The notes: a model not told the origin generated them from the sequence alone. 64,000 nucleotides of DNA from an uncultured Lentisphaeraceae bacterium (GCA_949288955.1 CASEMS010000010.1:33696-97695), one strand, 5' to 3'. Numbered from the stretch's first letter, positions 6,620 to 58,181 are shown. Numbers and translations are program-made.

Positions 6620-7784
6620 GACGGAGGCTTGGAGGTTTGGAAGTTTGGAGGCTTGGCGGCGCCTCCCCTCCCACAGCCTTGCCCGCGTGCGCCAAACTTC
6701 CAACCTTCCAAGCCTCCAAACTTCCGATGGGCAGGGAGGGATCGACGTCGAGGGCGAGGGCGGCGGTGGGATCCGCCGGGAGGGGAAGGGCGGAGGCGAG
6801 GCCGGCGATCATGGCGGCGTTGTCGCCGCAATACTTGGGCTCGGCCAGGAGCAGGCGGACGCCGCGGCGCGCGGCGACCTGCGCGAGGGCGTCGCGGAGG
6901 GCGCGGTTGAGGGAGACGCCGCCGCCGAGGGCCAGGCTCCGGTAGGGGGCGGAGGCGAGGGCGCGGTCGGCGCGCTTGGCGAGGGCGCGGACGATGGCGG
7001 CCTGGTAGCTGGCGCAGAGGGTGGCGACGTCGGCCTCGCCCTGCGGGGGCTGCTTGCGGACGTGGGTGAGGAGCGCGGTCTTGAGGCCGCTGAAGGAGAC
7101 GCAGAGGGCGGGATCCCAACCGTCCGGGAGGGGATGGTCCTCGGAGACGCGCCCCTCGGGGAAGCGGATGGCGCGGTCGGCGCCGGGGGGGGCCTGGCGG
7201 GCGGCCTTGTCGATGACCGGGCCGCCGGGATAGCCCAGGCCGAGGAGCTTGGCGGCCTTGTCGAAGGCCTCGCCGGCGGCGTCGTCGATGGTCTGGCCCA
7301 GGAGGCGGTGGCGGTCGGGCCCCTCGGAGGCCACGAAGCAGGTGTGCCCGCCGCTGACGGCCAGCCCCAGCTGGGGCCAGAGGGCCGCGCCGCGGAGCTC
7401 GGGGTGGCCGAGGCGGACGGACCAGAGGTGGGCGTGCATGTGGTTGACGGGGACGAGCGGCTTGCCGGTGGCGAGGGCGAGCCCCTTGGCGAAGGTCCAG
7501 CCGACGAGGAGGGCCGCGGCGAGGCCGGGCCCGCGCGTGGCGGCGATGGCGTCCACCCGCGCCCAGGGGTCCGGGTCGCCGGGGAAGGCCTGCGCCAACG
7601 CCTCCTCGGCCACGGCGCGAATCTTGGCGACGTGCGCGCGGCTGGCGACCTCGGGGACGACGCCGCCGTAGGGGCGGTGGAGCGCGATCTGGGAGTAGAC
7701 GACGGAGGCCAGGACGCCGTCGCCGTCTTGGACGACGGCGACGGCGGTCTCGTCGCAGGAGCTCTCAATGCCCAGGACGGTCAC
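6612..7784 (-). CDS. tsaD: tRNA N6-adenosine threonylcarbamoyltransferase TsaD, with an unusual ~38-aa C-terminal extension read through a repeat element
   Basis: MTVLGIESSCDETAVAVV... and HMHAHL ... CGDNAAMIAGLA are the Kae1/TsaD family hallmarks. The tail ...SLEAWKVGSL...[12 protein letters not shown] is encoded by the AGGCTTGG octamer inverted array at 6623-6725. Confidence 0.85.
   Translation of the reverse strand: MTVLGIESSCDETAVAVVQDGDGVLASVVYSQIALHRPYGGVVPEVASRAHVAKIRAVAEEALAQAFPGDPDPWARVDAIAATRGPGLAAALLVGWTFAKGLALATGKPLVPVNHMHAHLWSVRLGHPELRGAALWPQLGLAVSGGHTCFVASEGPDRHRLLGQTIDDAAGEAFDKAAKLLGLGYPGGPVIDKAARQAPPGADRAIRFPEGRVSEDHPLPDGWDPALCVSFSGLKTALLTHVRKQPPQGEADVATLCASYQAAIVRALAKRADRALASAPYRSLALGGGVSLNRALRDALAQVAARRGVRLLLAEPKYCGDNAAMIAGLASALPLPADPTAALALDVDPSLPIGSLEAWKVGSLAHAGKAVGGEAPPSLQTSKPPSLRHD
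6623..6725. repeat. Octamer (AGGCTTGG/AAGTTTGG) inverted tandem array, copy 1
   Basis: ggaggcttggaggtttggaagtttggaggcttgg (6623-6656), a ~34-nt spacer, then the reverse-complement arm gccaaacttccaaccttccaagcctccaaacttcc (6691-6725). Confidence 0.8.
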
Positions 7785-7787
7785 GGC

Positions 7788-10700
7788 TCACTCGGGGAGG
7801 CGGAGGATGAGGGTGCGCATGGTGGGCGCGGTGAGGCGGCGATCCAGCTCGATGAGGGCGGGGAACTGCCAGGCGTCGAGGAGGGCCGTGGCGCGGTCGG
7901 TGGTGGCGGTGTAGGTGAGGCGCACCCAGCCGGTGGGCGTGACGGACTGCTCGCAGGTGAGGGAGGCCTGGCCGCCGCCGGGGAAGCTGACGGTGAAGGG
8001 CTCGGGCTTGGAGAGGATCTCGGAGCCGGGGGGGAGCCACAGGTCGAGGGTGCGGCGGGCGCCCTCGACGCCGGTCTGCCAGATGGGGTTCTCGCGGGTG
8101 ACGCCGCGGAGGCCGTAGGCGGCGGCGGTGAGGTTCTGGATGGGCAGGGCCAGGAGGCGGCCGCGGCGCTGGGCGTAGGCCTTGGCCTCGACGGCGAGGC
8201 GCGCGCGGGTGGGGTAGGCGCGGGTGTCGACGGTGTACTCGCTGACGGGGGTGGCGCCGGAGGCGAGGGCCTCGGCGAGGGCGGCGACGGCGCGGCGGCG
8301 GTGCTCGGGGGTGATGTCGCGCTCGACCTGGCGGGTGATGCCCGCGAGGGCACCCCAGCACCGGGTGGTGCCGGCGATGGTGGCGTCGCCGTTGGGCTGG
8401 AGGACGAGGACGGTGTCGGTCTCGGTGCGGGTGCGGAGCGCCTTGGGCGCGGCGTAGAGGGTGCGGCCCTCGGCGGTCATGAGGGCGCAGGAGCCGCGGT
8501 TGGCGGAGCCGGGCTCGGCGAGCTCGGCCTCGTCGCCCACGAGGCGGCCGTCGGGCAGCAGGAGGTAGGGCGTCGTCCAGCGCGACCACATGGGCACCTG
8601 GCGGAGGGCGAGGCGCTCGCCGAAGCGCAGCTCGGTCTCGAGGGTCTGGTCGTTGGCGAAGACGAGCTGGGCCTCGATGTCGGCGGCGCGCAGGAGGGCG
8701 AGCCAGAGGGTGAGGCGGTCGAGGCGGTTGCCGTAGCCCTCGGCGAGGGTGGCGGCGGGCGGCGTGAGGGTGCCCCAGCGGAGGGACTCCCAGGCGGGCC
8801 CGGCCTGGCGGATGTTCTTGGCCATGAAGGCCTGGATGGCGCGCAGGCGGCCCTCCAGGTCATCGCCGTCCAACGCCTCGGTGAGGCGCTCGGCGGTCTC
8901 CTCGACGCTCTCGCCGGGCTCGTCGGCGGCGGCGTCGGCCTGCTTGGCGAGCGCGGGGAGGACGCGGTGGGCGGCGGCGTCGCGCAGGGCCAGGTGGAGG
9001 GTCGGGCGGATGAGGGGCGCGGCGGGGATGGCGGCCTCGGGCTTGGTGGCGGGGAGATCGCGCACGACCCAGGCGCGGGTGACCTGCGTGCCGTTGGTGA
9101 CGACGGTGCGGGAGACGGCGGCGTCGGCGAAGTTGCGCTCGGCGATGCGGAGCTGGCCGTCGAGCGCCACGGGGAGGGTGAGCGTGTAGCGGTCCTCGCG
9201 GGTGGGGTAGGCGCCGGAGCCGAAGGTCACGGTCTGGGCGAAGGGCCCGCCGGCCTCGGTGGTGGTGGTCACGTCCACGTGGGTCACGGCGCCGACGTCC
9301 ACGGCGGGCAGGGAGAGGACGGTCTGGCGGAAGGCGGGGTAGCGGGGCGCGAGGGCGGCGCCGTCGGCGTCCAGGCGGGAGATCTCCTTCTCGGTGATGG
9401 GCACGCGGTCGCCGGTGGCGGTGGTGACCGTGACGGCGTTGAGGGCGAGGGTCTGGGTGTCGGGGTTGTGATAGAGGGTGACCTCGCCGTTCTCGCGCTT
9501 GCCCTGGAAGGTGAGGATGCGCTTGTCGGAGACGGTGCGGGTGGTGCGCGTGCCGTCCTCGGCGATCGTCTCCTCCACGGCGCTGAGGAGCACCTCGGCG
9601 TCCACGTCCCGCTCGGCGTCGCGGGTGAAGAGGGGGCGCAGGCTCTCGACGCGGCTCATGCGCTCCTTGAAGCGGCGGAGGGCGCGGTAGTCCTCGGGCG
9701 TGTAGACCTTGTGGGAGAGGACGAGCTCGCGGGTGAGGGTGAGGTCGCCGTTCTCGGCGCGGCGGCAGACGATGTCGAAGGAGGCGCCGTTGGCCTTGAG
9801 GATGGGGTCGTCGGGGAGCAGCTCGGCCTTGCCGAGGCGGCCGACGCCGCGGAGGGTGAGGGTCTCGCGGACGCCGCAGGGCGCCTCGATCTCCCAGTCA
9901 TACTTGCGCGTGGGCTGGTCGAGGCCGTTGAAGAGGAAGTTGATGACGCCGACGGCGCGGCTGAGGAAGGGGAGGGTGACGAGCGTCCGCCCCTTGGCGT
10001 CGGGCACGCCGAAGGCGGGCACGCGGCCCTTGACGCGGACGACGAGGGGCTGGGAGATGTCCTTCGGGTCCTTCGGGGCGATGTCCAGCTCCTCCAGCTC
10101 GGCGCCGGGGGCGGCGCGCTTGAGGAGGCCGTCGAACATGTCGCGGATGGTCTCGGGCTGGGTGCGGACGAAGGCGGAGCGGTAGGCGTTGTCGTTCACG
10201 CCGCCGAAGCGGATGGTGGATTCGAGCGCCAGGTCGCCGGAGGCGTCGAGCGTGCCGACGGTCTCCACCTCGGCCATGTTCTTCTCGGGGCCGGGGACGG
10301 GCACCTGGCGGAGGTCCTCGCCCTCGGGGCGGCAGACGAGGAAGGAGCAGTTGCTGAGGTAGGCGGGCAGCTCGGCGCGGGCGGTGTCGTCGGTCGGGTC
10401 CAGCAGGCGGTAGTTGCGGTTGCCCTCGTCGATGGCCACGACCGCGTGGTTGAAGTAGGGCACGGGCACCTCGCGGTCGCGGGGGCTGCCGGCGTGGATG
10501 AGCACGGGATAGGCGTCGATGCCGGCCTTGCGGAACATGGCCACCAGGAGGGCGCCCTTGTCGCGGCAGACGCCGTAACGGTTGTCGAAGGTGAGGGAGA
10601 CGTCGTGCGGCTCGTAGCCAGGGGCGGTGTCCTCGGCGATGATGCCCATGTAGCGGATGCCTTGGGCGACGAAGCCGAAGAGCGCCTCGATCTGCTCCTC

Positions 10701-11612
10701 GCGGCTCTTGCCCTCGGTCAGCTCCCGAACCTTGGCGTCGATGGCCGGGGTGGTGGCCAGGTGCCTCTCGCAGAGGCCCCAATACCACTTGGAGATCTCC
10801 TCCCACGTGGAGAAGGTGGAGACGGAGACGCGCTGGAGGGTGACGAAGCGGTCGGGCATCTTGTCCTCGGCGAAGCTCTGGGGCACGTCGCGCGCCACCC
10901 AGCGGTGGAGGGTGCGGCCGTCGGCCAGCGTCTCACGGCTGGCGGTGACGGTGCCGGGCACCTCGTCGATCAGCGCCGAGGCGCGCAGCGGCAGCTCCTT
11001 GGGCGCCACGATGGTCATCTCCGCATACGGCACCGGGCCCTCGAAGCTCTCGAAGACGCAGAGGTTGGAGAAGGTGTCGGGGATGCGCGGGCGCACCGTG
11101 CGCATGGCGGCCACCACGTGCAGCGTGTCCCCCACCGACACCTTCGGCACGGTCAGCACCAGGTTCTTCATCGAGGGGTCGTAGATGTTCGCGTCGTGGC
11201 TGTCGTTGCTCGTGGCGATGGAGAGGTTCGCCTCCAGGTCTATCGGCGTCACCGTGCCATCGGGGGAGACGATCTCCGCCTGCAGGAAGTGGGATTCCGA
11301 CCACCCCTCCCGGAACCAAAGCGGCATCGTGCGCAGCTCCTTCGCCCCCGGCTCCGTCAGCGCCTTCGTCCAGAACTCGAACCACGTGGTGTCCGTGCCG
11401 TCGGGGGCGTACTCCACCCACTGCGCCTCCGCCACCGTCAGCGTGTCGGCGTCCGGCGCCGTGGCGCGCGTCGCGGCCGCCGCGCGCGCCATCGCCTCCG
11501 CCCGGTCCAACGTCTTGGGCATCGCCGGGAACGCCGCCCAGCCCCACGCCGCCACGACCGCCACGGCCGCCGCGGACAGCCAAACTCGTGCATGCATCGC
11601 AACTCCGTTCAT
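7788..11612 (-). CDS. Large secreted DUF3857/transglutaminase-like (cysteine-protease-fold) protein with a duplicated, degenerate second TGase-like core
   Basis: An SD GGAGAAAGG sits 9 nt upstream of MNGVAMHARVWLSAAAVAVVAAWG (signal peptide). The core GIRYMGIIAEDTAPGYEPHDVSLTFDNRYGVCRDKGALLVAMFRKAGIDAYPV is a transglutaminase-like Cys motif. A second TGase-like segment (GYGNRLDRLTLWLALLRAADIEAQLV) lacks the Cys. Confidence 0.6.
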   Translation of the reverse strand: MNGVAMHARVWLSAAAVAVVAAWGWAAFPAMPKTLDRAEAMARAAAATRATAPDADTLTVAEAQWVEYAPDGTDTTWFEFWTKALTEPGAKELRTMPLWFREGWSESHFLQAEIVSPDGTVTPIDLEANLSIATSNDSHDANIYDPSMKNLVLTVPKVSVGDTLHVVAAMRTVRPRIPDTFSNLCVFESFEGPVPYAEMTIVAPKELPLRASALIDEVPGTVTASRETLADGRTLHRWVARDVPQSFAEDKMPDRFVTLQRVSVSTFSTWEEISKWYWGLCERHLATTPAIDAKVRELTEGKSREEQIEALFGFVAQGIRYMGIIAEDTAPGYEPHDVSLTFDNRYGVCRDKGALLVAMFRKAGIDAYPVLIHAGSPRDREVPVPYFNHAVVAIDEGNRNYRLLDPTDDTARAELPAYLSNCSFLVCRPEGEDLRQVPVPGPEKNMAEVETVGTLDASGDLALESTIRFGGVNDNAYRSAFVRTQPETIRDMFDGLLKRAAPGAELEELDIAPKDPKDISQPLVVRVKGRVPAFGVPDAKGRTLVTLPFLSRAVGVINFLFNGLDQPTRKYDWEIEAPCGVRETLTLRGVGRLGKAELLPDDPILKANGASFDIVCRRAENGDLTLTRELVLSHKVYTPEDYRALRRFKERMSRVESLRPLFTRDAERDVDAEVLLSAVEETIAEDGTRTTRTVSDKRILTFQGKRENGEVTLYHNPDTQTLALNAVTVTTATGDRVPITEKEISRLDADGAALAPRYPAFRQTVLSLPAVDVGAVTHVDVTTTTEAGGPFAQTVTFGSGAYPTREDRYTLTLPVALDGQLRIAERNFADAAVSRTVVTNGTQVTRAWVVRDLPATKPEAAIPAAPLIRPTLHLALRDAAAHRVLPALAKQADAAADEPGESVEETAERLTEALDGDDLEGRLRAIQAFMAKNIRQAGPAWESLRWGTLTPPAATLAEGYGNRLDRLTLWLALLRAADIEAQLVFANDQTLETELRFGERLALRQVPMWSRWTTPYLLLPDGRLVGDEAELAEPGSANRGSCALMTAEGRTLYAAPKALRTRTETDTVLVLQPNGDATIAGTTRCWGALAGITRQVERDITPEHRRRAVAALAEALASGATPVSEYTVDTRAYPTRARLAVEAKAYAQRRGRLLALPIQNLTAAAYGLRGVTRENPIWQTGVEGARRTLDLWLPPGSEILSKPEPFTVSFPGGGQASLTCEQSVTPTGWVRLTYTATTDRATALLDAWQFPALIELDRRLTAPTMRTLILRLPE

Positions 11613-11685: not shown

Positions 11686-11783
11686 GGGGGATTTACACCG
11701 CAAAGACGCAAGGGGGCGCGGGAGGCTCGCGGGCTAACGCCGGTCGCTCTGCGGGCTGCGCCCGCTGACCGCTCCCTACCGCG
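11686..11783 (+). repeat. ~95-bp dispersed intergenic element, copy A (also 31321-31413 in + orientation, 58025-58112 in reverse)
   Basis: gatttacaccgcaaagacgcaagggggcgcgggaggctcgcgggctaacgccggtcgctctgcgggctgcgcccgctgaccgctccctaccgc is near-identical to the other two copies. Confidence 0.75.
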
Positions 11784-11788: not shown

Positions 11789-11822
11789 GGAAGTTCGGAA
11801 GGTTGGAGGCTTGGAGGCTTGG
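11789..11822. repeat. Octamer AGGCTTGG tandem array, copy 2 (abuts the CRISPR-like array)
   Basis: ggaagttcggaaggttggaggcttggaggcttgg. Confidence 0.75.
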
Positions 11823-12026
11823 CCGCGCACGCGCGGGGCATCGGGAGCGCGTCGCGCTCTTCGGAGGTCAGGACGGGGCTTGGCCGCGCACGCGCGGGGC
11901 ATCGACCCCCACAGCCGCACCGCCGTCATGGCGGCGAGGCTTGGCCGCGCACGCGCGGGGCATCGTCTTAGGCCCAACGTCATTCCATATTTGATTCTGG
12001 CTTGGCCGCGCACGCGCGGGGCATCG
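11816..12026 (+). CRISPR. Orphan CRISPR-like mini-array: 4 x 28-nt repeat GGCTTGGCCGCGCACGCGCGGGGCATCG with 3 x 33-nt unique spacers; no cas genes in window
   Basis: Repeats lie at 11816-11843, 11877-11904, 11938-11965 and 11999-12026 and are identical. Spacers lie at 11844-11876, 11905-11937 and 11966-11998. The repeat contains the palindrome CCGCGC-ac-GCGCGG. Spacer 3 (tcttaggcccaacgtcattccatatttgattct) is ~39% GC against ~70% for the genome. Caveat: a partial repeat copy in reverse orientation (58108-58125) sits next to octamer repeats at another locus, so this may be a tandemly expanded REP/MITE-type element. Confidence 0.4.
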
Positions 12027-12039
12027 CCATCCCTCCCCG

Positions 12040-12118
12040 GCTCGGCCGCTAAGACTGGGAGAGTCGGCGGCTGATCCACCCCGACTCGGGGGCTAAGCCA
12101 CCGAGACTTAGCGGCTGA
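12040..12118. repeat. 22-bp REP-like tandem family (GAGGTGGATCAGCCGCCGAGCC-type), locus 2
   Basis: gtcggcggctgatccaccccgactcgggggctaagccaccgagacttagcggctgagg. Related units also occur at 221-312, 12521-12602, 22619-22684, 31636-31722, 40566-40626 and 57643-57740. Confidence 0.75.
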
Positions 12119-12135
12119 GGCTTCCCAACCCGCCT

Positions 12136-12240
12136 GCCAGGACATCTAGGACGGCTAGGACCTCTAGGACATCTGGGACGCTCGCCCTGTACGCCGCCGT
12201 CCTAGTCGTCCTAGCTGTCCTGGTTGTCCTAGCTGTCCCT
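12136..12240. repeat. Long imperfect hairpin built from five 9-mer tandem units (CTAGGACNN) and their inverted complement
   Basis: Left arm ccaggacatctaggacggctaggacctctaggacatctgggacg; loop ~15 nt; right arm cgtcctagtcgtcctagctgtcctggttgtcctagctgtccc. Confidence 0.7.
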
Positions 12241-12379: not shown

Positions 12380-12505
12380 TCTCGGTGTCTCGGCCCCCGA
12401 GGCGCGAAGGCGGCGGGCGGGAGGGCGAAGCAAGGGGGCGTCTCCGCCCCCGCCGCGTTCGCCCGGCGTTAGCCCGCCGTCCTTCGCGCGCCCTCGCGCC
12501 CTCGC
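12380..12505 (+). repeat. ~120-bp dispersed element, copy 1 (reverse-orientation copy at ~57765-57885)
   Basis: gaaggcggcgggcgggagggcgaag...ccgccgcgttcgcccggcgttagcccgccgtccttcgcgcgccctcgcgccctcgcgg is ~90% identical to the reverse complement of 57771-57885. Confidence 0.65.
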
Positions 12506-12635
12506 GGAAAAGAAGCCCCCGGCGGCCGACCCACCCCGGCTCGGCGGCTAAGTCTCCTCGGCTCGGCGGCTGATCCACCGAGACTCAGCCGCCGAGTCTC
12601 CGCGAGAGCGCGGGCGCGACGGACGGGGCGGGCTG

Positions 12636-12644
12636 TGCTATACT
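12636..12644 (+). promoter_or_regulatory. Extended -10 promoter (TGCTATACT) 8 nt upstream of the rsmI ATG; likely leaderless transcript
   Basis: ggctgTGcTATACTaatgggtcATG; the same architecture occurs at guaA (26371-26379) and at the 3034 gene (3016-3026). Confidence 0.45.
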
Positions 12645-12652
12645 AATGGGTC

Positions 12653-13375
12653 ATGGATTTGGTTGCGCAGCTGTACGTGGTGGCGACGCCGCTCGGGAAC
12701 CTGGGGGATCTCACCCCGCGGGCGCGGGAGGTGTTGGCTGCGGCGCGGGCCATCGCCTGCGAGGACACGCGCAGGACGTGGCAGCTGCTCTCGGCGCTGG
12801 GAATCCCGAGGCCGGAGCTCTTCTCCTACCGCCAGGGGAACGAGGAGGGCGTGTCGCGCCGGATCGTGGGGCTGGTGCGGGCCGGGACGGCGGTGGCGCT
12901 CTGCTCGGACGGGGGCTACCCGGGGATCAGCGACCCGGGCTACCGCGTGCTGCGGGCCTTCGCGGGGGAGGGGCTGCCGTGGACGGTGCTGCCGGGGCCG
13001 TGCAGCGTGGAGCTGGCGCTCCTGCTCTCGGGCCTGCCCACCTCCAGCTACACCTTCAAGGGCTTCCCGCCGCGCAAGCCCGGGGCCCTGCGCCGTTGGT
13101 TCGGGGAGGAGGCCGCCGCCCGCCACACGTTGGTGGGCCTGGAATCGCCCTTCCGCATCGGCGCGACGCTGCGGGCGGCGCTGGAGGCGCTGGGGGACCG
13201 GGAGGCGGCGGTCTGCCTGGAGATGACCAAGGCCCACGAGCGGGTGGAGCGGGGGACGCTCGCGGCGCTGGCCGAGCGTTTCGCGGGGCCGCCGCCGAAG
13301 GGGGAGCTGACGTTCGTGATCGCGGGGGCGAACCCGAAGTTCGATCATTCCAAGGAGGACGGGACGGATGCGTAA
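12653..13375 (+). CDS. rsmI: 16S rRNA (cytidine1402-2'-O)-methyltransferase RsmI
   Basis: MDLVAQLYVVATPLGNLGDLTPRAREVL...LCSDGGYPGISDPGY are typical RsmI (tetrapyrrole-methylase fold) motifs; 240 aa. Confidence 0.85.
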   Translation: MDLVAQLYVVATPLGNLGDLTPRAREVLAAARAIACEDTRRTWQLLSALGIPRPELFSYRQGNEEGVSRRIVGLVRAGTAVALCSDGGYPGISDPGYRVLRAFAGEGLPWTVLPGPCSVELALLLSGLPTSSYTFKGFPPRKPGALRRWFGEEAAARHTLVGLESPFRIGATLRAALEALGDREAAVCLEMTKAHERVERGTLAALAERFAGPPPKGELTFVIAGANPKFDHSKEDGTDA

Positions 13376-15204: not shown

Positions 15205-15306
15205 GGAAGTTCGGAGGCTTGGAGGCTTGGAAGTTTGGCGGCGCGACGCCACCCCCGCACCAAGCCACCAAGCCTCCAAGCCTCCAAACCTCCAAGCCTC
15301 CAATCC
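15205..15306. repeat. Octamer AGGCTTGG inverted tandem array, copy 3 (between pdxJ and tgt)
   Basis: ggaagttcggaggcttggaggcttggaagtttgg ... caagccaccaagcctccaagcctccaaacctccaagcctccaatcc. Confidence 0.8.
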
Positions 15307-15313
15307 CCCCGCC

Positions 15314-22538: not shown

Positions 22539-22618
22539 CGGCAGGGAAAAGGGACGCCCCGGATCGCCCAAACGTCCCGAAAATCCCTCAGGCCATTCAG
22601 AGCCCTCCCCCGCCTCTC

Positions 22619-22684
22619 TGAGGATCGGCGGCTGATCCACTGAGGATCGGCGGCTGATCCTCCCCCGATCGGCGGCTGATCCAA
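22619..22684. repeat. 22-bp REP-like tandem family, locus 4 (3 units)
   Basis: gaggatcggcggctgatccactgaggatcggcggctgatcctcccccgatcggcggctgatcc. Confidence 0.75.
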
Positions 22685-31287: not shown

Positions 31288-31325
31288 GGAGGCTTGGAAG
31301 TTTGGAGGCTTGGAGGCTTGGGGGG
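31288..31325. repeat. Octamer AGGCTTGG tandem array, copy 4, immediately followed by the ~95-bp element copy B (31321-31413)
   Basis: ggaggcttggaagtttggaggcttggaggcttgggggg, then gatttgaccgcaaagacgcaagggggcgcgggaggcttgcgggctccgccggtcgctctgcgggcttcgcccgctgaccgctccctaccgc. Confidence 0.75.
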
Positions 31326-31733
31326 ATTTGACCGCAAAGACGCAAGGGGGCGCGGGAGGCTTGCGGGCTCCGCCGGTCGCTCTGCGGGCTTCGCCCGCTG
31401 ACCGCTCCCTACCGCCCTCGCCTCCCGCCCATCCCCCTTCGTGTCCCCCGTGCCCCCCTTTGTGTGCTTCGTGATCTCCCTCTGGCAGTCCTGCGCGGGC
31501 CACGCCCGCGCTCCCGTTGTGGCCTTTGTGTCCGTTGTGATTGTCCCCCCCTCGTGCTTCGTGTCCCCCTGTGTCCCCCTTCGTGTGCTTCGTGATCTCC
31601 CCCTCGCCGTGCCGGGCGCTTGGCGGCCCCCCCGAAGCCGATCGGCGGCTGACCCAATGTGGATCAGCCCCTAGTCCGAGGTGGATCAGCCGCTGATCCG
31701 AGGTGGATCGGGGGCCGAGCCCGGCGGCCCCGC

Positions 31734-36137: not shown

Positions 36138-37643
36138 TTATCGACTCCGACACATCTTAGAGTCCACAAAACACCTCTGAACCATCGCAGTCTCCGGCGG
36201 CATAGACCGCTGCCAGATTCTTGCCCAACGCTCCTTCCGTAACCTTGCCGCATCTAGTGCTAATCCCGTGAACACCAAAGCCCACATAATTCCGCCCATA
36301 CCTGTCATTGAAAACATTGAAAATTCACCAAGATTGGAAATCAAAATTACAAGCAAAACCGCACCCGTCGAAACTGCACCTTGAGATATGAATGAACAAA
36401 AGGCAATTATCAAGAATATAAGAAACAAAACGAAACCCAAGATCCCGCCTTCCTCAAGAATAGCAGTTATCCATACCCCTTTTTCAATCGGTGCGGACAA
36501 AAGATCCGTAATCGAGTTAATTTCTCGGTGTTCCATTCCCTTTGACACTTGGAATCCATTACCAATAACTGGACTCTCACTAAAGTTCTTCAAAGCCTCA
36601 TCCATCAATCCCTGACGCGTTTTAAGAAGTTCTTCCGAGGTAATTTCTAGTTTCGCATCCTTTGCTACATATTTCAGTGCAAATCTCGCAGTAGCCTCTC
36701 GTATCTGTGGACTAATCGAAAAAACAATACCCCCTAAAAGAAAAAGACCAAACAACACTGTCTGCACCTGTACCTTCCAAGTTGTTCGGGTCTGTTTGGA
36801 GAACGAGAAACACATCCCGACAAAACACATTCCTGCCACATAAGTTCCCATCGCAGTTCGGCTTGAAGAATAATAAATTAAAACAGGGATACCCAACAAT
36901 AATACAGAATAAACAATATCCCACCGTTTTAAGACAAATAATAAATCGGCGAAAAGGATAACGCTTGTTGCCGCCAAGAGTGGCCCGAGGGCTTGTGGAC
37001 TATTTGTAATTCCAGTAAACAAGCCCATCGCAGAAACAGGCAATCCCATTTCTATTGCTTGCTGTGCACCAACTTTTGCGATTCCAGGAAATGGGATTAG
37101 GCACAGCGATCCTACAACCCAAAATATAGCAATCGCCAAAACAATATTACGTAACTCTAAGGCCTCTTCCCCTCCCGCAATATAAACCTTTGAAACACTA
37201 AAAAACGCAATCAATGTAATAACAAAAAGGAAGAGTTTTAAATAACTTATCAACGGAGACCATCCCGCACACGAAACAACACCCATATAAACGCAATATC
37301 CGAATAATGTGAAAAATGGCGTCAGCAATGGACTACGTCGAACACTGAGAGCTTTTAAGCCCATAACGACACTCGCCAATAAATAAACAATTCGATTCGC
37401 AAATGAAAATACTACATCTTTCGGTGCGATAAATGAATTCGCAAAAGTCAAAACCCCTGTAAGTAACAGACAAAAGAATATACCCCGCATACTGTTCTTC
37501 ATCAATGCTCCAATGAGCACAAGAAGCAATACAGCAAAACCTGTCCCTCCCGTCGCTTTCATTATTCCGCACAATAAAATTATTGCGAAAAGATACCAAG
37601 CGACCTTTTTAGGTTGATACGCAGTGTTTACCATCTTCATCAT
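36138..37643 (-). CDS. Wzy-like O-antigen/EPS polymerase (O-antigen ligase superfamily, ~11 TM)
   Basis: A polytopic membrane protein with the large periplasmic loop typical of Wzy/WaaL. Low GC (~45%), so the compositional break falls right at the ugd boundary. Confidence 0.55.
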   Translation of the reverse strand: MMKMVNTAYQPKKVAWYLFAIILLCGIMKATGGTGFAVLLLVLIGALMKNSMRGIFFCLLLTGVLTFANSFIAPKDVVFSFANRIVYLLASVVMGLKALSVRRSPLLTPFFTLFGYCVYMGVVSCAGWSPLISYLKLFLFVITLIAFFSVSKVYIAGGEEALELRNIVLAIAIFWVVGSLCLIPFPGIAKVGAQQAIEMGLPVSAMGLFTGITNSPQALGPLLAATSVILFADLLFVLKRWDIVYSVLLLGIPVLIYYSSSRTAMGTYVAGMCFVGMCFSFSKQTRTTWKVQVQTVLFGLFLLGGIVFSISPQIREATARFALKYVAKDAKLEITSEELLKTRQGLMDEALKNFSESPVIGNGFQVSKGMEHREINSITDLLSAPIEKGVWITAILEEGGILGFVLFLIFLIIAFCSFISQGAVSTGAVLLVILISNLGEFSMFSMTGMGGIMWALVFTGLALDAARLRKERWARIWQRSMPPETAMVQRCFVDSKMCRSR

Positions 37644-38701
37644 AGATCCTCTTTTACCTTACACGGCATATATGACAGCCGCTTCTGCACATTAGAAAAA
37701 CAGTTGCGTATAAAACAAATAAAAGCAAAGAACAAACACATACTTCTAGGAAAACTCCATGCAAGACGAATAATCCAATAACTTTCCCAAATGTCTTTAT
37801 TGCCTACATAACGACCTATTAATTGACTTGAGCATATGCGATAAAGATCACGAATATTTTGAATCCGATTCTCTCCCATTGCTAACGGTGCCCGCATGGC
37901 ACTTAAAATCAGATTACGCGTATTTCTTATAATCCACATATTCCACATCATCTCTGAAGACATCACACCATAACGCATAACCATTTCTCGTCGAAATCGT
38001 ATAACTGATAGAAAGTCAACCATATTCTGCCGCTTGTAATTGCGTACAGACGACTGAGCATTAGGCAAATAGTGATACAACCCCTCATGCAGAAGCCCAA
38101 GACGCGTTACTTTTTCAAATAAGTAAAGATTCAATATCATATCATCGAACATCAAGACCGACATCTCTGCAAAACGAGAAAAGTCGTAAGTGTTTTTATA
38201 AAGTTTATCCCAAACAAAGACAGCTCCCTGCCCACAAAACAACCTTGGCCACACATATTCCTTAAAAACTTGTTCGCGTGTTAAAAAAAGTTCTGGCTCC
38301 ATGTATACGCCATGGCACGAATCGCATTGTACAATTTCCAATTTATTCTGAACCGCAAACGTATACAAACGTTCATACATGGTGGATTCAATGAAATCGT
38401 CTGCATCCACGAAACCAAACCAAGAAGAATGAATACGACGTAATCCCATTAAGCGAGCTAAATATCCTCGCTTATTACGTTGATGAAGAACATGTACCCT
38501 TGAGTCTGCCCGAGCTAACACATCAGCGATTTCTCCTGTTCCCTCATCAGAACCATCGTCCACAATCCAAATTTCTATAGCCGGATAAGTCTGACACAAA
38601 ATAGAATTAACCGAACGCGTTAAAAAATGCCCAACGCGATATGCAGGCACTATAACCGAAATTGTCTCTGCCTTTACCTTTTCTGCTCTACACAAACACA
38701 T
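37640..38701 (-). CDS. Glycosyltransferase family 2
   Basis: ISVIVPAYRVGHFLTRSVNSILCQTYPAIEIWIVDDGSDEGTG...FVDADD is the GT-A DxD-type N-terminus. Low GC. Confidence 0.75.
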   Translation of the reverse strand: MCLCRAEKVKAETISVIVPAYRVGHFLTRSVNSILCQTYPAIEIWIVDDGSDEGTGEIADVLARADSRVHVLHQRNKRGYLARLMGLRRIHSSWFGFVDADDFIESTMYERLYTFAVQNKLEIVQCDSCHGVYMEPELFLTREQVFKEYVWPRLFCGQGAVFVWDKLYKNTYDFSRFAEMSVLMFDDMILNLYLFEKVTRLGLLHEGLYHYLPNAQSSVRNYKRQNMVDFLSVIRFRREMVMRYGVMSSEMMWNMWIIRNTRNLILSAMRAPLAMGENRIQNIRDLYRICSSQLIGRYVGNKDIWESYWIIRLAWSFPRSMCLFFAFICFIRNCFSNVQKRLSYMPCKVKEDL

Positions 38702-38702
38702 T

Positions 38703-39800
38703 TCAAGCCTCTTCGATTTGCGCCATTAATACTTGTGCGATGGCACGCCAGGCATATCGGTTCAACGCCAAAGCCCGCCCGCGACGACCGAACTCATCCA
38801 ACTCCGAATCCGAAGCCATCAAAAAACGCCCCAAAGCCTCCGCCAACGCCTTCTCGTCCAACGCGAAGGTCTCGCCACACCCCTTCTCGTGCAGAACCGA
38901 CCAAGGCGTGGCCTCAGAGGCCAAGACCGGCAAACCAAAACCCAACGCGTCCGGGACTACGCCCCCGAAGTTCTCTGTGTAGGACGGCAGAACCAACAAC
39001 CGCGCCAGACGATAGGCCGCCTCCTTGTCCGCACCATACAGCGGCCCCGTGAATGTAACATCCGCCTCTGCGAAGTTTTCCAGCTGCGCCCTCTGCGTCA
39101 CCACCCCCACCTGCTGCGCCAAGCGCTCCAGTTCCCCCATATGCCCGGCCTGATCGGGGCCCACGCACACCACGTGCCAATCCCCGAGCGCATACGACTG
39201 CTTGAGGCGCGCCCACGCCCGAATCAGCAAATCCAACCCCTTCACGGGATAAATGCGCCCCACGAAGAGCACCACGTGCCGCCGCCCCGAAGAATCCGGC
39301 GCCTCCTGCGGTGCGACCGTCCCCAACGGCGCTTCCGCGATCCGATTGCGAAAACCCAGATCCCGAACCCACCGAGCCTCCTGCGCCGACGTCACGTGAA
39401 GCGTCGACACCCCCCGCAGCGCCCACCGCTGATACAACCACCACGGCGCCATCTTCTTCCACCGCTTATGCGCCATCGCCCACGGCGCCAACATCCCGTG
39501 CGGCGACCACACCGCCGGGACTTTATGCAGCTTGGCCCACAGGAAGGCCCGCATGAGCCACGGATCCCACAACGCGTGGATGTGCACCACCTCCGGACGC
39601 CACCCACCCGCCGTCACCCCGCCGATGCCCCCCACGAAAACGCGCACCCGATCACCGACGGGATAGAAATCCTCCCCCCGCCGCCTCACCAAAAGGCGGC
39701 AGTCATGCCCCATCCCAGCCAATTGGCGCAACACCTCCCCGCAAAAGACGGAGGTGCCAGCGGCCCTAGCCATCCCTGTAATCACATGCAAAATCCGCAT
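38703..39800 (-). CDS. Glycosyltransferase family 4 (GT-B)
   Basis: MRILHVITGMARAAGTSV... with the C-terminal ...LVLPSYTENFGGVVPDALGFGLPVLASE (the E-x7-E-like GT4 motif). High-GC segment inside the island. Confidence 0.75.
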   Translation of the reverse strand: MRILHVITGMARAAGTSVFCGEVLRQLAGMGHDCRLLVRRRGEDFYPVGDRVRVFVGGIGGVTAGGWRPEVVHIHALWDPWLMRAFLWAKLHKVPAVWSPHGMLAPWAMAHKRWKKMAPWWLYQRWALRGVSTLHVTSAQEARWVRDLGFRNRIAEAPLGTVAPQEAPDSSGRRHVVLFVGRIYPVKGLDLLIRAWARLKQSYALGDWHVVCVGPDQAGHMGELERLAQQVGVVTQRAQLENFAEADVTFTGPLYGADKEAAYRLARLLVLPSYTENFGGVVPDALGFGLPVLASEATPWSVLHEKGCGETFALDEKALAEALGRFLMASDSELDEFGRRGRALALNRYAWRAIAQVLMAQIEEA

Positions 39801-39883
39801 ACCCCACACTATAGCACATTTTGGTTCCTTTCATCCGAATCATTTGTTATACTCACGACAGTTACCAACGAAGGATTTACGTT

Positions 39884-40519
39884 ATGGCCCTTGCGAAACT
39901 GTTACTGACGATTACTTTATCCACGCTGGCACTCGTTTCCGCCCGAGCAGTCGCCATGCCTTGGACACTTACCAATTTCGACTATCTACAACAAGCCGAC
40001 GAATCGCAACAACCTAGCGAATCGCGCCCAATCTCTGGTGTACAGATTCCCTCTTTCAACCTTTCCCTCTCCGACCTCTCGACTTCGGGCGATATGCAAC
40101 TCGCCTCCCAAACGGTCGTCCTTGAAACGGTTCTTATCGCCATGCGATCAGCCGGGCCAGACAAATTCGTCCCGGAGCGACTCATCCTCGCCCAAAAAGA
40201 TGGCACGCGTATTGCTGCCGCGACTGCCACTCCCACCTCACAAACCGTCACGGTTTACACCAGCCCCACGACGACTACCACTTGCAACGTGTGGGCATAT
40301 ACCTTTAGCGGAAAATTGCCAACGATAAGTACCTCCATCGATTACGATCTCATTTTCGCCACTAGCGATTGGTCTATTTATGAGACCTCCAAGTTTCGCG
40401 ACGACCAAACTATTCTCGCTCGAAACATCGCTGACGAGCCAAACATTGAGAACGCCATCTGGGCCCCCTTCATCCTGACAAGCGGCACATATACACCCCC
40501 CCCCCAGTGGCGCACCTGA
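39884..40519 (+). pseudogene. PEP-CTERM-type secreted protein interrupted by a C10 homopolymer; the +1 frame continues to 40580 encoding PEPTALSLLALGVALTFLRRR
   Basis: A signal peptide MALAKLLLTITLSTLALVSARAVA leads a Thr/Ser-rich body of ~48% GC. The C-run at 40496-40505 is followed by TGA at 40517. With 9 C instead of 10 the ORF reads ...TPPPSGAPEPTALSLLALGVALTFLRRR* (stop 40578-40580), a textbook PEP-CTERM sorting signal. The tail DNA is ~70% GC. Confidence 0.6.
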
Positions 40520-40565
40520 GCCGACGGCCTTGTCCCTCCTCGCCTTGGGGGTGGCCCTCACCTTC

Positions 40566-40626
40566 CTCCGCCGCCGCTGATCCACTTGGATCAGCGGCTC
40601 GTCCGAGGTGGATCAGCCGCCGATCC
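40566..40626. repeat. 22-bp REP-like family, locus 6
   Basis: gctgatccacttggatcagcggctcgtccgaggtggatcagccgccgatccgac. Confidence 0.7.
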
Positions 40627-40646
40627 GACCCGAGCAAGCCGCCATC

Positions 40647-40684
40647 GCAAAAAAGGGCCCCCGACGCTTCCCGCGCCGGGGGCC
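40647..40684 (-). terminator. Rho-independent terminator for the acyltransferase gene (minus strand)
   Basis: On the minus strand, GGCCCCCGgcgcgggaagcgtCGGGGGCC is followed by cttttttg. Confidence 0.55.
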
Positions 40685-40710
40685 ACCTTTCATCATCCAA
40701 GCCTATCCGC

Positions 40711-41772
40711 TCACAGCGTCCCATCGAACACCCGCATCAGCCTCGGCGCGATCCTGCGCCCAACCCGATGTGCCAACACACAAAGCGCCGTGCCAAACAA
40801 GACAAAAATCAGGCATAGCATCGTCAGCACTCCTGTTACACGGGGCAACAATGGTGCCACCGTGTGAAGCAAGGTGGAGGCAAAAAGGAAGTGTCCGGCA
40901 TAGACGAAGAACGCTGATGGAGCCAACCATTCCTGAATCCACCGAGCCGTGAGCAACCGTGTCAGCGGCTTCGCCACCGTCCATAGAAGCGGGATTGTCA
41001 ATACCGTCAACGCCGTCGTCACCACTGGAGGAAGAGTGCCGACCATGGCTTTGACCAGAAACATCCCCACCATCGCGGCCACGGAAATCGGCAAGAAGAC
41101 CATTCGATGCCTCTGAAAGAAGGCTGGGGCGTCAAACGAGCGAGCCGCCATGCCCCCTCCCGTTATGAAGGCAATCGCCGCATACGCCGGATAGGTCATC
41201 TTCAACGCCTCCGCCTGACCAGGGAAAAGTGCCGTCGCACCAACCAGCGCCACACACAACATCGCCAAACCCCACGCCGGGACTTTCCTGAACACCCAGT
41301 CAAGCACCGGCGCGAAGAGTGCGAAGACAAACAAGGTGCGGACGAACCACAGAGGCCCATCGATTGGGTGGATGGTCAAAGAGACGATTTTGTCCAAACA
41401 GCCCGACCATGTGTCCAGCCCAAATTGCGCAACGCGCGTGGCCAAGCGTGGCACCACCGCAGCAAAAGCCAAGTAGACCACCACGAACAGTACATTCCAC
41501 GCCAAATAAGGGACTGCCAGGCGCCGGACACGCGACCAGATCTTCCGCCCATACTGCGCATTCGAATAGTTGCGAAAGAGCAGATAGCCAGACAGGAAGA
41601 ACAACGTCGGCAGAAGCACCGGAGCGAATCCACCACACAGGAAACTCCAAAACCAATATTCCGCGCCCTCATGGCGAACGTATTGGAAAGCCGCCGACGC
41701 ATGTAACAGCACGACGAGCAGATTGCAGAAAAGGCGAACCGAATCGATTTCGGCTGAACGTTTCGTAGTCAT
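40711..41772 (-). CDS. Acyltransferase family 3 (OafA/OatA-like polysaccharide O-acyltransferase), 10 TM
   Basis: EIDSVRLFCNLLVVLLHASAAF... is an integral membrane protein with the Acyl_transf_3 N-terminal signature (R/H in TM1). Confidence 0.65.
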   Translation of the reverse strand: MTTKRSAEIDSVRLFCNLLVVLLHASAAFQYVRHEGAEYWFWSFLCGGFAPVLLPTLFFLSGYLLFRNYSNAQYGRKIWSRVRRLAVPYLAWNVLFVVVYLAFAAVVPRLATRVAQFGLDTWSGCLDKIVSLTIHPIDGPLWFVRTLFVFALFAPVLDWVFRKVPAWGLAMLCVALVGATALFPGQAEALKMTYPAYAAIAFITGGGMAARSFDAPAFFQRHRMVFLPISVAAMVGMFLVKAMVGTLPPVVTTALTVLTIPLLWTVAKPLTRLLTARWIQEWLAPSAFFVYAGHFLFASTLLHTVAPLLPRVTGVLTMLCLIFVLFGTALCVLAHRVGRRIAPRLMRVFDGTL

Positions 41773-41773
41773 T

Positions 41774-43027
41774 TCACTCCTCATAATCGTTTTGCAGAAC
41801 CTCTATCTCCTGCACCAAACGCAACAAGGCCTCCGCCGCACACTCGGCCGTCCATTCGCCGATGGGGACGGACGGGATGGGCGCACGGAGTTTTTGGGCG
41901 AGGGTCTCGACGTCGCCGGCGCGGAAGAGGTTGCTCGGCGGCAGGAGCGTTGCGCCGGCGCCGGATTCCACCGTCGCCAAGACGCGCATACCCTCCTCCA
42001 AAGCCTCGCTCACCACCGCGCCCCACCCCTCGTAGCCGTTGCTGGGGAGCACGTAGACATCGTGCGCGCGCATGAGCTCGCGCACCTGCGCCACGGGCAC
42101 GAAGTTATGAAAGCGGATAGTGTCGCAGCCCTTGGCGAGTTTGCGCAGGTGCGTCTCCTCCGGGCCATGGCCATAGAGATCCAATAAAATCCCCTCGCGC
42201 TTCAAATCCGGGCGCGGGCGGCACGCCCGCGCCAAATCCCCCACGCGCTTCAAATCAAGCATCCGCCCGACCCAAAGCGCCGCGGGCGGATGCTTGATTG
42301 GAAGCGCGTGAGCCCCCCCCTCCCCCCCACGGGAGGCGCCCCGCCCCGGCGCCACGAAATAGCCCCACATCCGCAATTTCGCGAACACCCCCTTGGGGCG
42401 TACCCGCCCCCATCGCTCCCGCGGAATCTGCGCGAACCCATGTTGCTTGGCGAAAGCAACCGCCTCCGCGTCGAGCACCCCCTCCGCAATCGCCTGCCCC
42501 AACGGCACCACCACCCCACCCGGCCGCGACTCGAACACCACCTTCGGCGCGCGGAAAAAGCACCGCCAATCCCCCGCGAAAAGCCCCAACACCCGCGCCA
42601 TGTCCCGCGCCGCGTGCACCCCCATCGGCAGGCAGAGGAACCCCGGCGCGCGCACGCACCGCGCGAACCGCCGCGCCATCCGGAAGTATGAGGGCACCAA
42701 AAGCCGCAGGAACCCCAACGGCGGCTTAAACCACCGCTCCGCCGCATAGAACGTCGCCTTCCCCGCCGCGTTGCGCCGCTCGAAAAGCCCCAACGCTCGG
42801 AGCCCCGACAGCACACAATCCGCCTCGGCTAACGCCGCGTCCTCCATCGTCCCCTGCACGCACCACGTCGGCACCGCGTCCCCGCCCCACCCCATCCGCG
42901 TACGCTCCCCATGCGCCGCCTCCGTGTGGACATAGCGGTAATTCGCCTCCCCCACCCGCCGTACCAACGCCTTCGCCAACGGCACCTGATGCGGCGACAC
43001 CACATTCGTCAACAACGCAATCTTCAT
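41774..43027 (-). CDS. Glycosyltransferase family 4 (GT-B)
   Basis: MKIALLTNVVSPHQVPLAKAL... and the C-terminal ...VYVLPSNGYEGWGAVVSEALEEGMRVLAT. High GC. Confidence 0.7.
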   Translation of the reverse strand: MKIALLTNVVSPHQVPLAKALVRRVGEANYRYVHTEAAHGERTRMGWGGDAVPTWCVQGTMEDAALAEADCVLSGLRALGLFERRNAAGKATFYAAERWFKPPLGFLRLLVPSYFRMARRFARCVRAPGFLCLPMGVHAARDMARVLGLFAGDWRCFFRAPKVVFESRPGGVVVPLGQAIAEGVLDAEAVAFAKQHGFAQIPRERWGRVRPKGVFAKLRMWGYFVAPGRGASRGGEGGAHALPIKHPPAALWVGRMLDLKRVGDLARACRPRPDLKREGILLDLYGHGPEETHLRKLAKGCDTIRFHNFVPVAQVRELMRAHDVYVLPSNGYEGWGAVVSEALEEGMRVLATVESGAGATLLPPSNLFRAGDVETLAQKLRAPIPSVPIGEWTAECAAEALLRLVQEIEVLQNDYEE

Positions 43028-43111
43028 ACGAGCCCGCACCGTTCCTTTCCGCTTGACTTCGCACCAAGACTCGACAACTGTAGAATGTCAATAGATGTAA
43101 AACCGACTCCA

Positions 43112-43618
43112 TCAGCGATAACGCTTTCGTACCTCCGCAGGCACGCCTGCAAGTAAACAATACGACGTGGTAATTGACTTCGTAACAACCGCGCCCGCCG
43201 CCACCAATGTCTTCTCCGGCAACGACACGCCTGGCAAAATCACGCTACGCGCCCCTAACCAACACCCATCACCAATCGAGACCGAGGCAGAGGTTCCTTT
43301 GCCCCCAATATGTTCCCCTTCGACATCCACCGAATGGCTACCGGTGAACATCATAACTGATGGGCCCAAATCAACATGATTCCCAATGCGAATTTCCCCA
43401 CTCCCTGCGGCGGACAAATAACAACCAGGCCCAATCCACACATCATCGCCAATCGTTATTTCTCCTGTCCCATTGAAAATTACGGAAGCCGAAATCCGAA
43501 CGCCCTGCCCAATGGTTACCCCACACCAAGCCAATAACTTCGTTCGAAATCCAAAACAACGAGTCTCTGGCAACATCCTATTCAATAGATTATAAAAAAA
43601 CAACCGATTTGTTCTCAC
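43112..43618 (-). CDS. Hexapeptide-repeat (LbH) sugar O-acetyltransferase
   Basis: Multiple [LIV]GxxxxI hexapeptide repeats (ITIGDDVWIGPGCYLSAAGSGEIRIGNHVDLGPSVMM...). Low GC. Confidence 0.65.
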   Translation of the reverse strand: MRTNRLFFYNLLNRMLPETRCFGFRTKLLAWCGVTIGQGVRISASVIFNGTGEITIGDDVWIGPGCYLSAAGSGEIRIGNHVDLGPSVMMFTGSHSVDVEGEHIGGKGTSASVSIGDGCWLGARSVILPGVSLPEKTLVAAGAVVTKSITTSYCLLAGVPAEVRKRYR

Positions 43619-43632
43619 GTCGTCTCTTTCTC

Positions 43633-44589: not shown

Positions 44590-44607
44590 AAACTACTCCT
44601 CTATATC

Positions 44608-46784: not shown

Positions 46785-46826
46785 AACGCGCTTAGTGTAG
46801 CAAAAACGTAGCAATCACACTTTGCC

Positions 46827-48773: not shown

Positions 48774-48783
48774 TGCTTAATGA

Positions 48784-50636: not shown

Positions 50637-50797
50637 AACCAAAATCCTGTCATCCTCGCATAAACGTCGCCATCCCTCCGCGCACCTCACCCAATAAGGC
50701 ACTCCCGCGAGATTGCAACGCTCGTGTTCGATTCCTCGTACAATATCTTCATTATAGCAGAAATAGGCGTTTCGTTCCCTGCCCCTGCGCTGCGTGG

Positions 50798-50833
50798 GGA
50801 AGAAAAAAGAAAGGCCCCCGAGGAGTCGGGGGC
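50798..50833 (-). terminator. Rho-independent terminator of the giant gene (minus strand); also the right boundary of the low-GC island
   Basis: On the minus strand, GGCCCCCGACTCCTCGGGGGCC is followed by tttcttttttc. Confidence 0.7.
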
Positions 50834-50853
50834 CTTGGGTGGCGGGAGTGGGA

Positions 50854-57642: not shown

Positions 57643-57740
57643 TCCCGACGGCTCGGCCGCCGACGCAAGGTGGATCGGCCGCCGACGCAAGGTGGATCAG
57701 CCGCCGAGCCGAGGTGGATCAGCCGCCGAGCCGGGGAGGG
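57643..57740. repeat. 22-bp REP-like tandem family, locus 7 (4 units)
   Basis: cgccgacgcaaggtggatcggccgccgacgcaaggtggatcagccgccgagccgaggtggatcagccgccgagcc. Confidence 0.75.
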
Positions 57741-58024
57741 CTGGCCGCCGACGCTTCTTTTCCGCGAGGACGCGAGGGTGCGCGAAGGACGGCGGGCTAA
57801 CGCCGGGCGAAAGCGGCGGGGGCGTCCCGCCCCCTGGTTTCGCCCTCCCGCCCGCCGCCTTCGCACCGCAAGGGGGGTGGCAATCCCCCCGCAGAAGCCG
57901 GGGCGCTCGGCGCGGGAGGGCACGGATGTGCCCGGCGTTAGCGCCGACGCGTCCCGGCGCACCCGCGTCTTCGCGAAAACTCCCCCGCCATGCCAACGCC
58001 TTTGGGCAGCGCGGGAGGCGAGGG

Positions 58025-58160
58025 CGGTAGGGAGCGGTCAGCGGGCGTCAGCCCGCAGAGCGACCGGCGGAGCCCGCAAGCCCTCCCGCGCAACCTTGCG
58101 TCTTCGCTTGCGCGTGCGCGGCCAAGCCTCCAAGCCTCCAAGCCTCCAAACTTCCAAACA
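58025..58160 (-). repeat. ~95-bp element copy C (reverse orientation) followed by a partial copy of the CRISPR-like repeat and octamer array copy 5
   Basis: gcggtagggagcggtcagcgggcgtcagcccgcagagcgaccggcggagcccgcaagccctcccgcgcaaccttgcgtcttcgcttgcg, then cttgcgcgtgcgcggccaagcctccaagcctccaagcctccaaacttccaaac. The reverse complement of 58108-58125 gives GGAGGCTTGGCCGCGCACGCGCAAG. Confidence 0.7.
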
Positions 58161-58170
58161 CCCGAACCTC

Positions 58171-58181
58171 TGTGGTATACT
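58171..58181 (+). promoter_or_regulatory. Extended -10 promoter (TGTGGTATACT) for aspS; here with a ~30-nt leader and SD
   Basis: cTGtggTATACTgtcgcgcgttcatcgagacaacgaggctttgtATG. Confidence 0.4.

Follow-up and report, generated by a model that had tools for sequence, protein, structure and literature searches.

A candidate neo-CRISPR array at a junction of dispersed intergenic repeats in a member of the Kiritimatiellia

The window analysed here, a single stretch of 64,000 nucleotides, carries in one of its intergenic regions a small array of four exact repeats and three spacers. The best explanation for it is that it is a very young neo-CRISPR array, formed by ectopic integration by a type I-E-like Cas1-Cas2 acting away from any cas locus, and we would put the probability of this reading at about 0.55. 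A fuller version of the same reading is that a wild population has been caught in the act of forming an array: a chance REP-like junction, missing entirely from other strains, would have been loaded independently by Cas1-Cas2 acting in trans to give alleles with 0, 1 and 3 spacers, and for this the odds seem to us to be about even. What is known of the origin of new CRISPR arrays comes mainly from over-expression in E. coli and, if the reading is true, the locus would be a natural example of a neo-CRISPR resolved at the level of a population. The earlier note on this DNA had set two interpretations side by side, a CRISPR array related by descent to a genomic repeat and an intergenic element that merely mimics a CRISPR array; the shared ancestry has stood up, 19 of the 28 nt of the repeat being native to the host, and pure mimicry has not, the 33-nt fillers being unrelated to one another.

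Anatomy and setting of the array

The 28-nt repeat GGCTTGGCCGCGCACGCGCGGGGCATCG is present as four exact copies starting, on the plus strand, at 11816, 11877, 11938 and 11999, and the array as a whole (11816-12026) has a period of 61 nt, consisting of 28 nt of repeat and 33 nt of spacer, just as the earlier note had described. The features are given here in plus-strand order and assigned to the minus strand, the strand on which the anchor motifs discussed below would have an I-E-like array read. Repeat 1 (11816..11843), which would be the trailer-end repeat, is followed by spacer 1 (11844..11876), repeat 2 (11877..11904), spacer 2 (11905..11937), repeat 3 (11938..11965), spacer 3 (11966..11998) and repeat 4 (11999..12026), which would be leader-proximal and has CCCCGCG at 12015-12021 on the minus strand. 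There is no degenerate terminal repeat. A search of the window that allowed up to 3 mismatches found no fifth copy, nor was any copy found in 100 shuffles. The three spacers have GC contents of 0.73, 0.76 and 0.39 respectively, the last of these confirming a previous figure of 39%. Each is single-copy in the window even when up to 3 mismatches are allowed. They are mutually unrelated, with pairwise identities of 6-14 out of 33 positions. The locus therefore has the features by which CRISPR arrays are generally recognised, namely three or more near-identical direct repeats of 23-47 nt at regular spacing and unique spacers of similar size, the latter comprising the three in the window and one from a sister strain (L056, described below), all of 33 nt and pairwise unrelated.

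The intergenic region that holds the array is 1,040 bp long and lies between a DUF3857/transglutaminase gene (7788-11612, minus strand) and an rsmI-like methyltransferase gene (12653-13375, plus strand). The wider neighbourhood is one of housekeeping genes (GH3, LptE, ABC-F, TsaD, DUF481, PdxJ and TGT). Judged by sequence similarity the host belongs to the Kiritimatiellia, its TGT being 82-83% identical to proteins from NCBI MAGs that bear this name.

Anchor motifs of the repeat

In the type I-E system of E. coli a single 28-bp repeat is enough for adaptation and, within that repeat, two inverted repeats are the only essential parts; the insertion site lies 16 nt from the end of the motif CCCCGCG, which anchors one ruler, and a further ruler, of 8 nt, is anchored by GCGGG (Goren et al. 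2016, PMC5039180). The minus strand of the window's repeat reads CGATG-CCCCGCG-CGT-GCGCG-GCCAAGCC. The first motif occupies positions 6-12, ends 16 nt before the border and matches the E. coli anchor exactly. The second, GCGCG, is found at positions 16-20, with 8 nt between its end and the border, and matches GCGGG at four of the five positions with the critical second base, C, retained. Both anchors (IR1 exact, IR2 4/5) are thus found at ruler distances from the leader-distal border, under a rule established in E. coli that an integrase of the Kiritimatiellia may not obey. The dimensions of the array are also those of type I-E, in which a duplicated repeat of 28 bp and inserts of 33 bp are usually annotated as 29 plus 32. 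Within the 64 kb the two-motif pattern was found five times, against an expectation of 0.71: in each of the four repeats and at one additional site. The additional site (12714-12728, plus strand, CCCCGCGGGCGCGGG) is inside the rsmI coding sequence and has no insertion in any strain.

The orientation of the array was decided on the same motifs. A plus-strand orientation was considered and rejected, CCCCGCG being present on the minus strand only, and the minus-strand motifs would place the leader to the right of 12026 and would make the AT-rich spacer 3 the newest. The putative leader side (12027..12133, minus strand) is made up of units of a 22-nt family (GCCATCCCTCCCCGG CTCGGCCGCTAAGAC… GTCGGCGGCTGATCCACC…).

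The geometry and the anchor motifs are also what would be expected of a genuine I-E repeat, and in an ungapped comparison the 28-mer is identical to the E. coli repeat (itself verified in 4,247 genomes) at 18 of 28 positions. An alternative is therefore that this is an ordinary orphan array of type I-E, the 28-mer being the canonical repeat of the organism, as it might be, and serving cas-linked arrays elsewhere in the genome as well; the array, lying far from the cas operon, would gain spacers in trans, and collapse between repeats would yield the differences between alleles. Orphan arrays served in trans are common, and the differences in spacer content between strains at this fixed locus are in keeping with such an origin. 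We regard this as a serious alternative and the strongest one, if on balance the less likely, given the composition of the repeat, the alleles of sister strains and the distribution of the repeat, which are considered in turn below; the array also ends in an exact copy, where an orphan of this type would be expected to have a degenerate terminal repeat.

Native origin of the repeat

From its sequence the 28-mer looks like a junction, peculiar to this locus, of two dispersed elements of the host, an octamer array with a 12-nt tail on one side and the head of a 22-nt array on the other. Positions 1-7 (GGCTTGG) are the last 7 nt of the octamer unit. They continue, in phase, a native octamer-array element (GGAAGTTCGG AAGGTTGG AGGCTTGG AGGCTTGG, 11789..11822, plus strand), which runs into repeat 1 as GGAAGTTCGG AAGGTTGG AGGCTTGG A|GGCTTGG; the octamer stretch proper (AAGGTTGG AGGCTTGG AGGCTTGG) spans 11799-11822. 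The proposal that the first 7 nt of the repeat are octamer-array sequence is therefore borne out, and octamer arrays are found in at least six other places in the window.

Positions 8-19 are the 12-mer CCGCGCACGCGC, which has only five places in the window, the four repeats and a site at 58.1 kb, compared with an expectation of 0.23. At that site 19 contiguous nt (GGCTTGGCCGCGCACGCGC, 58110-58128, minus strand) lie beside another octamer array, so that the related copy in reverse orientation that had been reported there is real. The whole of this paralogous site (58110..58153, minus strand) consists of an octamer array and then CCGCGCACGCGC, corresponding to repeat positions 1-19, after which the sequence is unrelated to that of the repeat. 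The octamers followed by CCGCGCACGCGC are also present there in strains L112 and L114, with a truncated form in L115, and what follows CCGCGCACGCGC differs from strain to strain. Neither CCCCGCG nor an array is present at the paralogous site in the window or in four sister strains.

The 22-nt repeat arrays of this host are usually headed by the last nucleotides of the repeat, (GGC)ATCG; many loci have 22-nt arrays with ATCGGCGGCTGA… at their head, and the homologous position in haplotypes that have no array also has GGCATCG (…AAAAGGCATCGGCGGCTGAGACACC…). In one sister strain, L059, the sequence minus one 24-nt unit is exactly the junction found in L056. The array-less haplotypes also lack CCCCGCG. 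The absence of both motif and array from these haplotypes, and from the 58-kb paralogue in five strains, fits docking of an I-E-like integrase on a motif created by the junction, and the paralogous site and the alternative haplotypes together provide an internal negative control. The idea that a CRISPR array might share ancestry with a genomic repeat can accordingly be sharpened, with 19 of the 28 nt assigned to the end of a native octamer-array element and the last nucleotides to the head of a 22-nt array. This composition tells against the orphan I-E alternative: that the seven trailer-side nucleotides should be in phase with a native octamer array, and that 19 of the 28 nt should recur at a locus without an array, would call for a large coincidence if the repeat had been imported.

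The trailer-side far flank of the array is a copy (11690..11782, plus strand) of a dispersed element of ~95 nt (…ACCGCAAAGACGCAAGGGGGCGCGGGAGGCT…CCGGTCGCTCTGCGGGCT.CGCCCGCTGACCGCTCCCTACCGC), which is also found at 31322-31415 and on the minus strand at ~58020-58100 and is present in all haplotypes of the array's intergenic region. Short intergenic repeats, tandem and inverted (octamers, 22-mers and 9-mers), abound in the genome and vary in unit number between strains, and the array repeat is assembled from parts of such elements. It might accordingly be supposed that the array is a non-CRISPR REP- or MITE-like intergenic element in which tandem amplification, or recombination of dispersed copies, has come to mimic a CRISPR array, and neither nearby cas genes nor spacer matches were found that would speak for CRISPR. 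This we consider improbable. Slippage or tandem duplication copies the filler as well, yet the four known fillers are unrelated while each is exactly 33 nt long, and the borders of the duplication fall exactly at the I-E ruler distances. Recombination would have had no donor copies, since the complete 28-mer is present at no other locus in the ~310 kb of DNA of the host species that was examined; neither were there, in those ~310 kb, the many further loci with the 28-nt unit and non-unique fillers that would have been the mark of such an element, the fillers here being unique.

Several features of the tandem repeats themselves may be recorded. Arrays of the type [AGGCTTGG]n are located at 6625-6723, 15215-15307, 31290-31321 and 58122-58153, besides 11789-11822; octamer arrays are often arranged as inverted pairs between genes, where they would form long intergenic hairpins, and their unit number varies by sister strain, with 2, 3 or 4 units at the 58-kb site. 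The 22-nt tandem repeats have a conserved core, TCGGCGGCTGATCCACC, with ~7 variable nt, and they are mostly ATCG-headed with a unit number that varies between strains; arrays of them are found at 217-310, 12060-12119, 12520-12579, 22618-22683, 31640-31709, 40573-40629 and 57650-57752.

Alleles of the locus in sister strains

Exact-protein look-ups led to sister loci in ~25 metagenome assemblies from one sample series (ERZ16268xxx, ERR10610xxx). Their flanks differ by no more than ~1.9% and are mosaic, so that the sister loci represent one recombining species. The length of the intergenic region varies from 376 to 1,043 bp. Only three array-bearing contigs were found, those of L096, L056 and the window, which have a common haplotype with the octamer element. 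L096 has a single repeat and no spacer, with flanks that otherwise match those of the window, L056 has two repeats and one 33-nt spacer (TTGGTGATGACGTGATTAGCGGCGTTGAACATC) that is not present in the window, and the window allele has four repeats and three spacers. Around the array these alleles do not vary over ~75 nt on the left and 290 nt on the right, save for one indel, an extra GG behind the last repeat in L056. By contrast, nine complete alleles, from at least nine strains, have neither the octamer element nor the repeat. No further array-bearing alleles were found via TsaD and two more RsmI variants, and an exact-protein look-up with the window's DUF3857 protein found no record.

In four more contigs the position is taken by a low-GC insertion. 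In strains L053 (1360-2290), L054, L120 and L121 a low-GC segment with a gene of the 8xMP family replaces the DUF3857 side upstream of rsmI; such replacement in some strains marks the region upstream of rsmI as a hot spot for insertion and replacement.

Whole repeat-spacer units have thus been gained or lost between strains at a fixed locus, with 1, 2 or 4 repeats, and the unit of change between alleles is 28 bp of duplicated sequence plus exactly 33 bp of unrelated DNA. This is the signature of a Cas1-Cas2 integrase, and it is one that slippage or tandem duplication cannot yield. The suggestion that a tandem element was mimicking CRISPR is at odds with the same observations, the fillers being unrelated and all of 33 nt and the sister strains differing by whole units that carry different spacers. 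Strains whose right flanks differ at only 7 of 3999 nt have no spacer in common, an observation that weighs against the orphan I-E alternative. With no spacer common to the alleles, independent gains from a single repeat require fewer events than gain followed by loss. A single native copy at the same site in a relative, as in L096, is what would be expected beside a neo-CRISPR; a collapsed array would have just the same appearance as the L096 allele, which was read from a metagenome assembly. On the argument from numbers of events, the single-repeat state would be ancestral, not collapsed.

The alleles have all been read from metagenome contigs, many of which break inside the repeat-rich intergenic region, and the allelic series, and perhaps even the array, could in principle be an artefact of assembly, produced by mis-joins or collapses at the 28-nt repeats in assemblies of mixed strains. 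There is very little likelihood of this. Three independent assemblies from different samples have the identical repeat, the same flanks and exact 61-nt units, the repeats of 28 nt are presumably shorter than the k-mers usually employed for final contigs, and an artefact of this kind would not create unique 33-mers.

The neo-CRISPR reading can be set out as a series of steps. The octamer end with its tail CCGCGCACGCGC would have been joined via GGGGC to the ATCG head of a 22-nt array, a junction that would by chance have created CCCCGCG on the minus strand 5 nt from one border and GCGCG 8 nt from the other. A Cas1-Cas2 integrase, probably one of I-E type, would then dock on these anchor motifs and cut both borders, a 33-bp prespacer would be inserted, and the 28 bp would be duplicated on gap filling. 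Repeated rounds would turn the single-copy site, as represented by L096, into the two-repeat array of L056 and the four-repeat array of the window, with independent spacers in each.

Distribution of the repeat, cas genes and spacer targets

A number of searches were made for the repeat elsewhere. The first 19 positions gave 52 single matches of chance character among 185,579 GTDB species genomes, a collection that the host species is outside, all in unrelated taxa and none beside octamers. Positions 8-28 gave 31 single matches in JGI metagenomes, all inside protein-coding genes (e.g. kinases), and positions 6-28 gave none in IMG/VR. At a permissive threshold Rfam yielded no CRISPR-DR family, the only matches being spurious ones of miRNA families to a neighbouring hairpin of 9-nt units. 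A synthetic six-frame protein of the repeat had no match at E<=1 among 5.8 billion proteins, in a database that the window's own array ORFs are outside. Judging from these searches the 28-mer is not a known or widespread CRISPR repeat. Its failure to appear as an array in GTDB representative genomes, JGI metagenomes or IMG/VR is a further point against the orphan I-E alternative.

No cas families were found among the window ORFs scanned with Pfam, NCBIfam and PADLOC, no cas genes are present in the pre-computed annotation of sister contigs, which covers the remaining genes and ~10 kb past each end of the window, and none were met in a walk outward from the window via the flanking proteins. The earlier note's statement that there is no cas gene within 50 kb holds on the evidence of the ORF scans and the sister-contig annotation.

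The spacers yielded no credible match to 50,697 phage records and 72,556 plasmids, nor did they match the window or the sister loci. In IMG/VR, 0 exact matches were obtained with 20-mers (two from spacer 3 and two from the L056 spacer) or with 24-mers (one from spacer 1 and one from spacer 2). When the whole array was compared with phages and plasmids by BLAST the matches were of chance quality, to GC-rich palindromes, and included one Ralstonia site that was hit by all four repeats. It may simply be that the viruses of this host are lacking from the databases of spacer targets. The AT-rich spacer 3 had been suggested to derive from the low-GC island at 36-50 kb, and the island was rejected as its source when no match was found at up to 8 mismatches. 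The island (36138-51008, GC 0.42-0.59) proved to be a polysaccharide or O-antigen-type cluster (Wzy_C/Wzy-like, GT2, GT4, GT-D and Acyl_transf_3) with a few defence genes; between 46.8 and 51 kb there are three of defence type, PDC-S49 (a KAP-like NTPase) and a pair consisting of an AbiL-like ATPase and DUF3226.

Whether the array could be a source of crRNA is a separate matter. The stem of the repeat is interrupted (GCCCCGC/GCGCGGC), and its predicted folding energies, -8.7 kcal/mol (z +0.44) for the minus strand and -12 kcal/mol (z -0.52) for the plus strand, are no better than those of shuffled sequences. A hairpin that is imperfect, and no more stable than shuffles, makes a role as crRNA source doubtful, and the array may be an immunologically silent by-product. 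The same imperfection is not what the orphan I-E alternative would lead one to expect.

Relationship to known systems

Nivala, Shipman & Church (2018, Nat Microbiol) are reported, in papers that cite them, to have shown that off-target integration by the E. coli I-E Cas1-Cas2 seeds neo-CRISPR loci; the work involved over-expression of Cas1-Cas2 in the laboratory, and a paper citing it calls the natural evidence circumstantial. Integration at repeat-like sites that are not CRISPR loci has also been obtained in vitro with the Cas1-Cas2 of P. furiosus. As they are described in the citing papers, the neo-CRISPR loci of E. coli resemble the array of the window in that a spacer-sized insert enters a non-CRISPR site with a target duplication of repeat length and can seed an array, and in that the sites of integration resemble repeats or features of the leader. 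The present case differs in involving a natural population with array-less, one-, two- and four-repeat alleles, in which the integrase itself is not seen, and in that the proto-repeat would be a junction of two REP-like host elements.

The likeness to CRISPR-1 and CRISPR-2 of E. coli K-12 (type I-E) extends to the 61-nt period, to CCCCGCG at positions 6-12 and to a GCG-type motif at 16-20. The window differs from these in having no cas operon within >64 kb and no detected AT-rich leader, and in that no sigma-70-like promoter was found on either side of the array. It differs also in its imperfect stem, in a 3' end that reads CCAAGCC where that of E. coli reads ATAAACC, and in a repeat that would be made from native dispersed elements and is unmatched by the Rfam CRISPR-DR families. 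Orphan arrays such as CRISPR2 of E. faecalis are likewise remote from cas genes and have spacers that vary between strains. The repeat of such an array is normally found also in a cas-linked array of the same species or its relatives, and ancestral trailer spacers are usually kept, whereas here there is no known relative of the repeat and no spacer common to the strains. Families of REP, BIME and MITE type, short, GC-rich, palindromic, intergenic and variable between strains, account for the flanks and for at least 19 of the 28 nt of the repeat, but such families do not have exact repeats alternating with unique fillers of fixed length, and the complete 28-mer is not dispersed.

The interest of the locus lies in its being a natural within-species series from pre- to post-integration. 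It makes testable the two-ruler model outside E. coli, the sequence needs of ectopic integration and the possibility that REP-like repeats seed arrays. If the neo-CRISPR reading is true, and if the array is transcribed and processed, dispersed repeats of the host would have been recruited as functional CRISPR repeats. The locus also carries a practical warning, that adaptation can really have produced an orphan mini-array in a high-GC genome rich in repeats even where cas genes are not nearby.

Other elements of the intergenic regions

The ~95-nt dispersed element, which may also be written …ACCGCAAAGACGCAAGG…CCGGTCGCTCTGCGGGCT…CTGACCGCTCCCTACCGC, often has as its partner another element, GGCGGGCGGGAGGGCGAA.CAAGGGGGCG…GCGTTAGCCCGCCGTCCTTCGCGCG, copies of which are located at 12405-12490 and 57770-57850. 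To the right of the array, at 12134-12240, there is a hairpin of ~100 nt formed from inverted arrays of a 9-nt unit (AGGACNNCT / AGNNGTCCT). The array-less haplotypes have a hairpin of the same design in the same position with a different 9-nt unit (GTCCTTCNN / NNGAAGGAC), so that the architecture of this element is conserved and its sequence replaced between haplotypes. An extended −10 element, TGTGCTATACT (12634-12655), ends 8 nt ahead of the ATG of rsmI (12653), which suggests that the rsmI mRNA is leaderless or nearly so, and a similar element, TGTGGTATACT, is found at ~58165-58180, upstream of aspS.
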